From sequence record NC_100372.1: a stretch of DNA of 64,000 nt; one strand, written 5' to 3'. The notes below the pieces were generated by a model. It saw nothing but the letters and a program-made list of their open reading frames with translations, made no database searches and was not told the origin of the DNA. How positions within the stretch are numbered: position 1 is the stretch's first letter; the number at the start of each line of letters is the position of its first letter. A program made the translations under genes and the position numbers. The stretch is from a phage. Shown here piece after piece: positions 22,797 to 29,536 of this stretch.

Positions 22797-23030
22797 ATGA
22801 AAGTTAAATTTCTTACAGATTTAGGGTACCCTTCCTTGGTTGACTGCGTTGGTAAAATTGTGGAAGCAAAACGGCTATCTGCAAACGATAATGTTGTCAT
22901 GGTTAAGGGAAAAGATTTACTAGCTGCAGGTGCAGAGTCTGGCAGGATCTCTCCTGACTATACGTATTACCTGTCTTTAAGTAATCTACCAGAACGAGGC
23001 GGCAAAGGCCTTGAAGTTGTGGAGGAGTGA
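22797..23030 (+). CDS. Small acidic paralog-family protein
   Basis: AGGAGG RBS; MKVKFL N-terminus, VKGKDLLAAGA motif, C-terminal EVVEE. Confidence 0.5.
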   Translation: MKVKFLTDLGYPSLVDCVGKIVEAKRLSANDNVVMVKGKDLLAAGAESGRISPDYTYYLSLSNLPERGGKGLEVVEE

Positions 23031-26170: not shown

Positions 26171-26455
26171 ATGAGCAATGGTGTTAGCAATAGTGCTGCA
26201 GAGTTTAAAGTGATCTGTAAAGGAACTTATTGGATAGTGAAACAGAAAGTGTACCTATTCGGTTTCATACCGTTTTGGCAGAGATTTTGCTGGGGAGCTA
26301 ACGAGCTTAAGAGATACGCAACCAAGGCTATGGCACTTATTGGTATAGCTGAATACATTGCTGCCAGGGACAGAGAGGGTAAAACTTGTTACTACACTGC
26401 TGACGAGATTCGTAACAGTGTTTACGTTCCACAACCGCCCGATGGAGACCGCTGA
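26171..26455 (+). CDS. Hypothetical protein
   Basis: AAGGAGAAG RBS. Confidence 0.5.
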   Translation: MSNGVSNSAAEFKVICKGTYWIVKQKVYLFGFIPFWQRFCWGANELKRYATKAMALIGIAEYIAARDREGKTCYYTADEIRNSVYVPQPPDGDR

Positions 26456-26679
26456 TGAAAGTTAAAGTTTTAGATTCAAGCTTCTATATTGGTCAGGAGC
26501 CCTTAGTGGGGAAAGTGTTTACCGCTATCCCTAACGAAGATTATCCTGACCTTCTAAAAATAAAAGGTGCAGATCTTATTGCCGCTGGTGCATCCCAGGA
26601 ATGCTTTGACAGTCAGTGGACCTACAACTTTGCCCTAGGAGAGGATGTGGAGATAGTGGAGGACGATCATGAAGGTTAA
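26455..26679 (+). CDS. Small acidic paralog-family protein
   Basis: MKVKVLDS N-terminus, KIKGADLIAAGA motif, acidic C-terminus. Confidence 0.55.
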   Translation: MKVKVLDSSFYIGQEPLVGKVFTAIPNEDYPDLLKIKGADLIAAGASQECFDSQWTYNFALGEDVEIVEDDHEG

Positions 26680-26923
26680 AATTCTTGACTCTAACGTCTA
26701 CTTGGGACAATCCTTCCTGAAAGGAAAGGTAGTACCTGCTGTATACTTCGAAGGGTTGCCGTGGGACGATCCTGTGCGGCAAAATCACAGCCATGTAGGC
26801 CACAATGTGGTGTTCATCTTGGGATCAGACCTGATCGCGGCTGGTGCCCCGGAATATTATTTCGGAGAGGACTCGTATTATGCCTTTGGGGCAGGGTCAG
26901 ATGCAGATATTTTAGAGCTGTGA
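26669..26923 (+). CDS. Small acidic paralog-family protein
   Basis: MKVKILDS N-terminus, ILGSDLIAAGA motif. Confidence 0.55.
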   Translation: MKVKILDSNVYLGQSFLKGKVVPAVYFEGLPWDDPVRQNHSHVGHNVVFILGSDLIAAGAPEYYFGEDSYYAFGAGSDADILEL

Positions 26924-26935
26924 TGGGGAACTGTT

Positions 26936-27334
26936 GTGAAAAATAAACTGTTCAAAGTTACAATGAAAATTCGCGGAGCTTGGAGCGTAAAGCAAGGGCG
27001 TATCCCCGAATTTGAGAAAGACTTCTACGTAGTCTCCACCTCGGAGGAGGCTGCATGCTGGCAGGCTGGCTATGCCTATGCAAGAACCTGGTACGAAGGA
27101 TACCAGACTGGAGGCTATGACGGAGAAATTGTCAGTAAGGGTGTGGAAGAAATTAATGTGTTGACAAGTGAAAAAGTTTTTGTTATAGTGCATCCAGATT
27201 CCAGAGTGAAGCATTACTGGAATGCCAGAACAAAAACCTGGACACCGTTTGCAGATTCTGCTACACCACTTTTAAACCAGAAAGCTCTTGACTCTGCCCC
27301 AAGCTATGGGGTTGTTGAAGAAAAGATAAGCTGA
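26936..27334 (+). CDS. Hypothetical protein (paralog of 29141..29536)
   Basis: Shared VHPDSRVKHYWNARTKTWTP / RHPHSNIAYYWDVLNNEWTP segment. Confidence 0.5.
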   Translation: MKNKLFKVTMKIRGAWSVKQGRIPEFEKDFYVVSTSEEAACWQAGYAYARTWYEGYQTGGYDGEIVSKGVEEINVLTSEKVFVIVHPDSRVKHYWNARTKTWTPFADSATPLLNQKALDSAPSYGVVEEKIS

Positions 27335-27648: not shown

Positions 27649-27677
27649 TTGACACAACGCTTCAGATTTAGTATCAT
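27649..27677 (+). promoter_or_regulatory. Sigma70-like promoter (TTGACA-17-TATCAT)
   Basis: Perfect -35, 5/6 -10, directly upstream of the HPF-like gene. Confidence 0.45.
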
Positions 27678-27723
27678 TGTTTTCAAAGAGGGGTTGGTCC
27701 CTCTTCTTTAAAAGGAACACATT

Positions 27724-28041
27724 ATGCAAATTGAAATCACTGGCAACGTAGAGATCACTGAAGGTATGGTGTCTTTCATTTCCAACAAAATGTCCAAGCT
27801 GGAGCGTTTGCACCCCTCTGCCAACTATGCACGTGTGAGTGTAAAAGTTGAAAATGATCACCAGGAAGTTATGGCTTTCATTTTTGACACTTCTGGAAAA
27901 GAAGTTATCGCCAAAGCTAAAGGTAGTGATGCTTACGAGGCAACTGACCGTATGGTAGATGTTGCAGCACGCCAGTTGGCTAAGTGTGGTGGAAAGAAAG
28001 GTAAGGGAAAAGGCAAAGTAAAGATTGACTTTTTAGATTAA
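27724..28041 (+). CDS. Ribosome hibernation promoting factor / RaiA (YfiA) family protein
   Basis: MQIEITGNVEITEGM...KLERL...VSVKVE...ARQLAK aligns along its length with E. coli HPF as I recall it (MQLNITGNNVEITEAL...KLEQY...VVLKVE...ARQLTK); lysine/glycine tail. Confidence 0.8.
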   Translation: MQIEITGNVEITEGMVSFISNKMSKLERLHPSANYARVSVKVENDHQEVMAFIFDTSGKEVIAKAKGSDAYEATDRMVDVAARQLAKCGGKKGKGKGKVKIDFLD

Positions 28042-28178
28042 GGTGCTACAATGGGCACGATTAAGAAATTAATCCCAAATGTAGAGATTGCATGCTTTGA
28101 AATTATGTTTGCAATCGCAGTTGTAGTTAATGTGTTAGGTTACGGCTATTAATATCAAATAATTGAGGAGACCTCTAA

Positions 28179-28448
28179 ATGAAAATTAAATTATTCCAAA
28201 CTGAGCTGGCAGACAAAAACTGTGGACTGGTTGAAGGCATGATCGTTGAAGCACAACCAGTTGACTACATGAAGGTGGTTCGTGATGCCCTGGGTGAAGG
28301 TTTTGATCTGATGGAGCCAGCTCTGCGAGAAGATGTCATCGAAATGGCTAAAAAGCACACACCGGAAGGTTTGGTAGTGTTTGTTGCTCCAGGTAATGGA
28401 GAGGAGTTGATTGTAACTCCGGATGTGTATGAGGTTGTAGAAGAGTAA
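28179..28448 (+). CDS. Small acidic paralog-family protein
   Basis: MKIKLF N-terminus, C-terminal YEVVEE. Confidence 0.55.
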   Translation: MKIKLFQTELADKNCGLVEGMIVEAQPVDYMKVVRDALGEGFDLMEPALREDVIEMAKKHTPEGLVVFVAPGNGEELIVTPDVYEVVEE

Positions 28449-28540: not shown

Positions 28541-28804
28541 ATGATTGTTTATTTTAAAACTTCAGGTGGATACCCTGATTCTCAAAGCTTGATTGGAAAA
28601 ACGTGCACAGCATACTCACCTCTTGATGAGGAGGTAAGTGGTATCCTACGAGATATGTATCGGATTGATCCACAAGAAGCTTTTGATCAAAACCTTGTAT
28701 TTGTCAAGGGATCAGACATAAAGTCTTTGGGGGCATTCCCTGAAGCAGATGATGATGCTGTTTATTCGTTTATGACACCTTTTGAAGCTATGGTTGTGGG
28801 GTAA
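28541..28804 (+). CDS. Small acidic paralog-family protein
   Basis: FVKGSDIKSLGA motif. Confidence 0.5.
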   Translation: MIVYFKTSGGYPDSQSLIGKTCTAYSPLDEEVSGILRDMYRIDPQEAFDQNLVFVKGSDIKSLGAFPEADDDAVYSFMTPFEAMVVG

Positions 28805-28808
28805 GAAT

Positions 28809-29141
28809 ATGAAAGTACGCTTTATTGGTGAAACAATTCCTGTGCATCTCCGGTCTCCTGAAGACTCTGCAGATCTTGCATCTCAAAAGGCGAGAGGGTA
28901 TGATAAGAAAGTGATCTCAAGCAATGTAGAGCTTGAGGCCACCAGTCTGCCTGACCCAGCTGCATTCTTCAATCATTATGGCTACTATTTTAGCAATCTG
29001 ATGAATATTGGTGAGCTTGTGTTTATTAGTGGTGGAGAGATAGTTAGCAAGCTTGGTGGAGATCCGGATATCTTTCATGAAACCTGTCCTTTTGCATTTG
29101 TGGTGGGTTCAGATGTGGAAGTTATTGAGGAGGTTCGGTAA
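28809..29141 (+). CDS. Small acidic paralog-family protein
   Basis: MKVRFIG start, VVGSDVEVIEE C-terminus. Confidence 0.5.
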   Translation: MKVRFIGETIPVHLRSPEDSADLASQKARGYDKKVISSNVELEATSLPDPAAFFNHYGYYFSNLMNIGELVFISGGEIVSKLGGDPDIFHETCPFAFVVGSDVEVIEEVR

Positions 29142-29536
29142 TGGTAAGTCTATACCGTGTTGAGTATAGCTCGGATACTGTATACAACGTAAGAAGCAAA
29201 GATCGCAGTGATAGAGTGCAAGAAATGTATGTTCTTGCAGATAGTCCGTTATCTGCAGCGTTCAAGGCAGGAGCTCTTGCATCTCGTTGGAAATTTGAGG
29301 GTGGATCTTTCTATGAAGAAACCCTCGAAGATTCTGTTGTTATTTCTTCTGTAGAGGTTTCAACCGACTACGAAGGGAAAAAGTTCGTAATGCGGCACCC
29401 ACACAGCAACATTGCGTACTACTGGGATGTTCTGAACAATGAGTGGACCCCTGATCTTCAGAAGGCCACTGTTCTAACCCCATTCCTGGCAGATAAGTTC
29501 CCACCAGAAGGTAATTTATCTGCACTGTTTCAGTAA
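29141..29536 (+). CDS. Hypothetical protein (paralog of 26936..27334)
   Basis: Shared HP.S..YW....WTP segment. Confidence 0.5.
   Translation: MVSLYRVEYSSDTVYNVRSKDRSDRVQEMYVLADSPLSAAFKAGALASRWKFEGGSFYEETLEDSVVISSVEVSTDYEGKKFVMRHPHSNIAYYWDVLNNEWTPDLQKATVLTPFLADKFPPEGNLSALFQ

Follow-up and report, generated by a model that had tools for sequence, protein, structure and literature searches.

Vequintavirus phages encode a conserved protein of the HPF/YfiA ribosome hibernation factor family with an apparently remodelled ribosome-contact surface

The stretch of phage DNA analysed here (the window; 64,000 nucleotides of record NC_100372.1) carries a gene whose 105-residue product belongs to the HPF/YfiA family, is predicted to adopt the HPF fold, is preceded by a σ70-type promoter and is conserved under purifying selection across the genus Vequintavirus (Table 1). 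'Hibernation factor' is to be read here as the name of a family and not as a demonstrated activity. The gene itself is already known, since it is annotated in phage rV5 (DQ832317) and in more than 100 other records and was published by Mizuno et al. 2019; having been catalogued, published and tested once, it is of low novelty. What we report as new is that the core of the phage protein is under strong purifying selection, that the protein forms an isolated clade with a syntenic copy in an uncultured sister lineage, that its ribosome-contact surface is remodelled, that a disordered Lys/Gly tail peculiar to the clade stands in place of the HPF C terminus, and that a search run without a positive control found no RMF partner in the phage.

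Table 1 Features of the hpf-like locus in the window
Feature	Position	Strand	Remarks
σ70-type promoter TTGACA-N17-TATCAT	27649..27677	+	11/12 match; equals rV5 P144
Leader hairpin AAGAGGG / CCCUCUU, 6-nt loop	27686..27705	+	weak feature, promoter-to-start-codon interval
Shine-Dalgarno AGGA	27713..27716	+	7 nt before ATG; invariant in 8 phages
hpf-like gene (rV5 ORF144 orthologue)	27724..28041	+	ATG start, 105 aa plus stop
Folded HPF/YfiA core, residues 1-89	27724..27990	+	AlphaFold2 model, Foldseek, dN/dS
Clade-specific disordered Lys/Gly-rich tail, residues 90-105 (GKKGKGKGKVKIDFLD)	27991..28038	+	pLDDT below 50

A first-pass annotation of the window, made without database searches, had proposed a phage-encoded HPF/RaiA homologue of 105 residues at this position. 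The frame is present exactly as described, and its phage origin is borne out by the surrounding DNA, which over the 1.2-kb hpf region shares 99.9% identity with Escherichia phage vB_EcoM-ECP26 and so identifies the source as a Vequintavirus. The protein is 100% identical to that of ECP26 (QDB73578). In the rV5 record the gene is annotated as ORF144, 'sigma 54 modulation factor', together with a 29-nt promoter, P144, while in other phage records the orthologue goes by the names hpf, RaiA or ribosome hibernation factor. The rV5 protein (ABI79209), called HPF by Mizuno et al. 2019, is 98% identical to the protein of the window and has the same promoter and the same neighbours; differences between the two are confined to N21/H21, T56/N56 and the C-terminal pair of residues (LD versus GE). 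The orthologue in MT884008.2, MT884010.2 and OR062528.1 is annotated as 'ATP-dependent protease La type I', plainly an error in the case of a 105-residue protein with an S30AE domain. No tRNA genes were found in the window.

Profile searches place the protein in the family with scores above the curated cut-offs. Pfam profile PF02482 (Ribosomal_S30AE) matches residues 3-88 over profile positions 1-83 of 88, with an E-value of 1.2e-12 and 48.8 bits, where the gathering score is 23.7, and TIGR00741 ('HPF/YfiA family') gives 47.0 bits against a cut-off of 40.9. Both of the more specific equivalog models score below their cut-offs, with 55.4 bits against 125 for the enterobacterial short HPF (NF007780) and 19.3 bits against 158 for RaiA/YfiA (NF007654), and on this comparison the core is HPF-like, not RaiA-like. 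A sequence search of the Protein Data Bank returned E. coli HPF as the best match (chains 2rql, 4v8h and 6h4n; E ~1e-11) over residues 1-89, and no domain or motif other than S30AE was detected in the phage protein by profile searches.

The predicted structure agrees with this assignment. An AlphaFold2 model built on 31 sequences has a mean pLDDT of 85, with 88-96 in the core, and shows the beta-alpha-beta-beta-beta-alpha topology, with strands at residues 2-7, 33-42, 47-55 and 60-67 and helices at 13-29 and 70-89, in agreement with the family fold, in which two helices pack against the same side of a four-stranded sheet. The top 35 matches in a Foldseek comparison to the Protein Data Bank are all HPF, YfiA or pY proteins; the model superposes on Vibrio HPF (4hei_A) with a TM-score of 0.93 and an rmsd of 1.1 Å, and on ribosome-bound E. 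coli HPF (6h4n_x), to which it is 42% identical, likewise with an rmsd of 1.1 Å. Because the family match and the HPF fold were both recovered, with neither an absent profile match nor a foreign fold to set against them, the HPF homology proposed in the first-pass annotation stands. The proposed alignment to bacterial HPF/YfiA along the whole length holds for residues 1-89, but for the last 16 residues neither bacterial HPF nor RaiA offers an equivalent.

Among cellular proteins, the phage protein is closest to the enterobacterial short HPF (E. coli YhbH/HPF, 2rql, 4v8h and 6h4n; Vibrio cholerae, 4hei), with which it shares a single-domain fold and about 40-42% identity over residues 1-89. A second, C-terminal dimerisation domain behind a linker, as in long HPFs of the Firmicutes/Thermus type, is absent, the 105 residues containing one domain match followed by disorder from residue 90 to 105. 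RaiA/YfiA/protein Y (4v8i, 1n3g) resembles the phage protein in fold, in binding-site family and in carrying a C-terminal extension beyond helix α2, yet its core is only 20-24% identical. HPF-like proteins of the same fold family also occur in the jumbo phages Cronobacter phage GAP32 (K4F6Q6) and Escherichia phage PBECO4 (L7TII8), the former also included in the list of Mizuno et al. 2019 (PMC6375957). These are only 20-22% identical to the window protein and were not recovered by tblastn at E<=1e-5 or E<=1e-3; to judge from their sequences, the jumbo-phage genes are probably independent acquisitions.

The C-terminal tail departs from the cellular proteins. The 18 residues that follow K87 (CGGKKGKGKGKVKIDFLD) carry a net charge of +4, and they stand in place of only 8 residues in E. 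coli HPF, whose C-terminal KDKLKQH is replaced in the phage by the 16-residue Lys/Gly tail. The RaiA tail, in contrast, is acidic (-4) and unrelated in sequence to that of the phage. The phage protein as a whole is basic, with a pI of 8.7, whereas enterobacterial HPF is near-neutral (~6.5 for E. coli HPF). Alignment revealed no counterpart of the tail in bacterial HPFs. Among the phages, the Lys/Gly repeat is preserved through synonymous changes, with variation confined to the final one or two residues (LD, GE, WD or E). The purine-rich tract that encodes the tail (27988-28020, +) bears single-base indels in APCEc02 and Murica, which frameshift or truncate it, and a 6-nt deletion in YN3; these changes may be real variation at a slippage-prone tract or sequencing error.

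The gene is a constant feature of its genus. A search with the 1.2-kb locus matched 117 phage records, almost all of them Vequintavirus (rV5-like), each with at least 80% query coverage, and since this holds for 117 of 117 there is no record with the neighbouring genes that lacks hpf. In a tblastn search, 116 records encode a protein 95-100% identical to that of the window, and one more encodes a protein at 90-95%. Eighteen of the deposited genomes (within MG065635-MG065684) are labelled 'Campylobacter phage', with Campylobacter jejuni as the stated host; their protein is 95-98% identical to that of rV5-like coliphages, and in two records the DNA is ~94% identical over the locus. The Campylobacter host label looks doubtful, and contamination or mislabelling may account for it.

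Pairwise dN/dS over core codons 1-89 of eight Vequintavirus copies is mostly 0.01-0.09, at dS values of up to 0.6, which shows strong purifying selection on the core. Beyond the genus, a sister-lineage protein (P0004; 103 aa) is about 64-65% identical to that of the window and is encoded on uncultured contigs that show the same gene order around hpf and the same -35 element upstream, with synonymous sites saturated between the two lineages. Three such contigs from Logan (ERR6997038_58, ERR4623478_391 and SRR25571739_58736) reach up to 126 kb, and records of the P0004 protein cluster include contigs as long as 137 kb. The sister lineage is absent from a collection of 50,697 phage records, and only 2 contigs in IMG/VR carry close relatives; the Logan contigs, with their rV5-like gene order around hpf, probably represent an undescribed relative of the genus Vequintavirus. 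The low dN/dS, the presence of the gene in all 117 records and the syntenic copy in the sister lineage together argue that the gene is functional.

The wider family contributes few close relatives. When 1.84 billion representative proteins were scanned exhaustively with HMMER, only 31 matched at E<=1e-3, the highest identity outside the phage lineage being 44%, and a word-index homologue search returned only 5 clusters, all of them phage. The phage protein forms an isolated clade that is narrow but old. Descent from an enterobacterial hpf is plausible on the same comparisons, because the closest cellular sequences are of that type; the idea, put forward in PMC6375957, that the gene was transferred recently from the host is not supported, the best cellular relative among these representatives being only 44% identical.

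The comparison of ribosome-contact residues draws on the list compiled for Gram-negative HPF and YfiA from cryo-EM structures (bioRxiv 10.1101/2025.10.07.680626). In those structures K80, R83, K87 and K91 of helix α2 are the basic residues strictly common to HPF and YfiA, R83 partners m4Cm1402, T53 contacts m2G966, strand β4 contacts 16S rRNA and position 64 touches 16S rRNA in a YfiA structure (bioRxiv 10.1101/2025.10.07.680626). Like the enterobacterial proteins, the phage protein retains K22, K25 (E. coli K26), E60, the hydrophobic I62, R83, K87 and K91, and all seven nearly invariant family columns (G7, T12, K22, G58, D69, Y71 and D75) are kept. Unlike them, it has lost K80 (V in the phage, T in the sister lineage), T53 (F and R, respectively) and K89 (G and S), and both phage lineages have gained K64 and K66 on strand β4 and R28 on helix α1. 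K22, K25, R28, K64, K66, R83 and K87 are invariant between the two lineages, which are 64% identical overall, and both share changes at conserved family positions (R17 to V16, DMY to DAY, AID to ATD, K80 to V/T and E66 to K66). Taken as a set, these substitutions indicate a contact surface that has been remodelled.

The first-pass annotation had also credited the gene with its own σ70-like promoter, and this sequence feature is real: it matches the consensus at 11 of 12 positions, is conserved and belongs to an enriched set. It lies 47 nt upstream of the open reading frame, and a transcription start is inferred at ~27684. P144 of rV5 is annotated at the homologous position, 8 related phages carry the hexamers unchanged, almost unchanged or improved, and the -35 element is kept in the sister lineage, where the protein is 64% identical. 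The window holds 24 sites with at least 11 of 12 consensus positions, 11 on the + strand and 13 on the - strand, where shuffled sequences gave ~0.9 per strand, an enrichment of roughly 12-fold. Since all 11 of the + strand sites lie between 1 and 34 kb and 12 of the 13 on the - strand between 36 and 62 kb, the window holds two convergent blocks of host-polymerase-dependent transcription units. Possession of a σ70 phage promoter also sets the gene apart from enterobacterial hpf, which sits in the rpoN operon. With a conserved near-consensus promoter of this kind, early expression of the phage gene is plausible; a literature search found no transcript or proteomic timing data for the phage protein.

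Between promoter and start codon lies a hairpin with a folding energy of -10.4 kcal/mol and a z-score of only -0.49. In the Murica/V18/nomo/YN3 group a mismatch in its stem is left uncompensated, and the hairpin is absent in the sister lineage; as it was also not called in a terminator scan, a role as attenuator or terminator is not supported. A further site that resembles a promoter (TTGACT-N16-TACAAT with a TG extension) falls within the final codons of hpf (region 28025-28152, +) and is followed there by a conserved 33-residue hydrophobic open reading frame (MGTIKKLIPNVEIACFEIMFAIAVVVNVLGYGY, rV5 ORF145).

The genes around hpf include several that are related to one another. Small proteins encoded at 22797, 26455, 26669 and 28809 (+) share 27-40% identity, and a 132-residue protein at 26936 is 31% identical to a 131-residue protein at 29141 (+), so that paralogous genes flank hpf at 26455-27334 and 28782-29536 (+), with a further one at 22797-23030. 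This points to a two-gene unit that was duplicated long ago, with copies now on both sides of hpf. A Pfam scan of the proteins at 26936, 28179, 28541 and 29141 gave no match. Among these, the 89-residue open reading frame at 28179-28448 (+) is labelled 'sigma 54 modulation factor' and was considered as a second HPF copy, which the lack of a Pfam match led us to reject. The mislabel is found in ECP26, nomo, pangalan and others, and originates from an off-by-one annotation in APCEc02, where the gene adjoins the real hpf, and has spread by similarity.

The only functional work on a phage protein of this lineage is that of Mizuno et al. 2019 (Nat Commun, PMC6375957), who included the rV5 protein in their catalogue of ribosomal proteins encoded by viruses and produced it in E. 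coli from pBAD. Mass spectrometry detected it in the crude extract and not in 70S and 100S ribosomes purified under high-stringency salt, and the 100S fraction neither rose nor fell from its small peak (PMC6375957), a difference from enterobacterial HPF. The authors named growth phase, stripping by salt and a true loss of binding as possible reasons, and speculated that a viral HPF competes with the host factor and so prevents ribosome dimerisation (PMC6375957). The copy they tested differs from that of the window at 2 core residues. A 2020 paper repeats the annotation, and our literature search found nothing later on the function of phage HPF. This sole experiment was negative under conditions able to strip the protein, and is not decisive for or against binding.

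With an RMF query run without a positive control, no RMF homologue was found in the window, nor any among 50,697 phage records, and on the result of that same query we set aside a phage-encoded RMF partner. The host encodes RMF.

We tentatively propose the following mechanism, in which the phage protein would silence and shield idle host ribosomes through the 30S channel, and which we judge to have about an even chance of being right. Host RNA polymerase would transcribe hpf early from the near-consensus σ70 promoter, and the product would load on host ribosomes vacated during the shutdown of host expression. There it would bind the head-body channel of the 30S subunit, overlapping the positions of A- and P-site tRNA and of mRNA, through helix α2 (R83 to m4Cm1402, K87 and K91), strand β4 (I62, K64 and K66) and helix α1 (K22, K25 and R28). 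All structurally studied members of the family bind this channel (bioRxiv 10.1101/2025.10.07.680626), and with the fold and most contact residues conserved under purifying selection, binding at the same site is the best-supported reading. Ribosomes occupied in this way would stay silent and protected from ribonuclease until phage messages need them; a cellular HPF homologue has been found to protect ribosomes from RNase R (PMC8406268).

The Lys-rich disordered tail would probably add non-specific affinity for rRNA and, like the tail of RaiA, may extend towards the RMF/anti-Shine-Dalgarno site. The long basic tail and the lack of a phage RMF make it likelier that the protein would act on 70S ribosomes, as RaiA does and possibly without RMF, than that it would promote 100S dimers, and action on 70S would fit the unchanged 100S peak in PMC6375957. 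Ribosome binding, its timing and the benefit to the phage are all inferred in this mechanism, and the benefit is not obvious, because an early, non-selective silencer of ribosomes would slow phage translation too. Counted against the proposal are the negative result on salt-washed ribosomes, the losses at K80, T53 and K89, and the failure to reach the HPF equivalog cut-off.

Both of the main alternatives start from the remodelled interface and the Lys/Gly tail, which might make the protein a transient ligand of the HPF/RaiA site that blocks RMF and counters dormancy imposed by the host or by a defence system, or might direct it to a new RNA target off the ribosome; we consider this pair of outcomes rather unlikely. 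The first is in essence what Mizuno et al. 2019 (PMC6375957) had proposed: a binder weaker or more reversible than the host factors, whose tail would occupy or occlude the RMF site, so that 100S dormancy set off by starvation or by defence could not withhold ribosomes from phage messages. We rate it an improbable reading that nevertheless has several observations on its side. With 18 residues beyond K87, where E. coli HPF has 8, the tail is closer in length to that of RaiA, whose own tail runs toward the RMF site (bioRxiv 10.1101/2025.10.07.680626); without K80 the affinity could be lower, at least one defence response, that of DRT2, includes a rise in RMF (reviewed in PMC13434031), 100S was not increased on expression (PMC6375957), and the search with the RMF query, run without a positive control, returned nothing from the window or the phage records. 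However, only in large excess could a weaker binder displace the stronger host factors, and any occupant of the A/P-site channel would itself be inhibitory. The phage tail, moreover, has no similarity to that of RaiA, is predicted to be disordered and has suffered frameshift or truncation in two of the deposited genomes, and the small 100S peak was not decreased on expression either (PMC6375957).

The second alternative, that ribosome binding has been lost and a dsRBD-like scaffold with a Lys tail binds another nucleic acid or protein, strikes us as similarly doubtful; phage or host mRNA or a host factor would be examples of such a target. It would account for the absence of the protein from salt-washed ribosomes despite good expression (PMC6375957), and is in keeping with a clade so isolated that, among 1.84 billion representative proteins, none from outside the phage lineage exceeds 44% identity, with substitutions at conserved family positions that both phage lineages share, with the failed HPF equivalog threshold and with the shift in pI from ~6.5 to 8.7. 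Yet most residues documented to contact rRNA are kept and are conserved from one phage lineage to the other, and the new K64 and K66 sit on rRNA-contacting β4; because this strand contacts 16S rRNA in cellular homologues, they look like remodelling of the interface and not its abandonment. The high-salt wash is known to strip peripheral factors, as the authors acknowledged (PMC6375957), and no other domain or motif was detected to which a new function could be assigned. A neutral, host-derived hitchhiker with no role in infection is very improbable: although this is a small gene among many small accessory open reading frames and has no known phenotype, the dN/dS of 0.01-0.09 at dS up to 0.6, the presence in 117 of 117 matching records and the retention of gene and promoter at a syntenic site, at 64% protein identity with saturated synonymous sites, effectively exclude it as far as selection and conservation data can.

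Phage-carried parts of the translation machinery reveal which host processes limit infection. If the silencing and shielding of idle ribosomes proposed here is true, a phage-encoded silencer or protector would be a compact tool with which to study the management of idle ribosomes during host takeover, and possibly also during the infection of slow-growing cells. Targets for mutation, single residues as well as the tail, follow from the purifying selection, the remodelled surface and the conserved basic tail.
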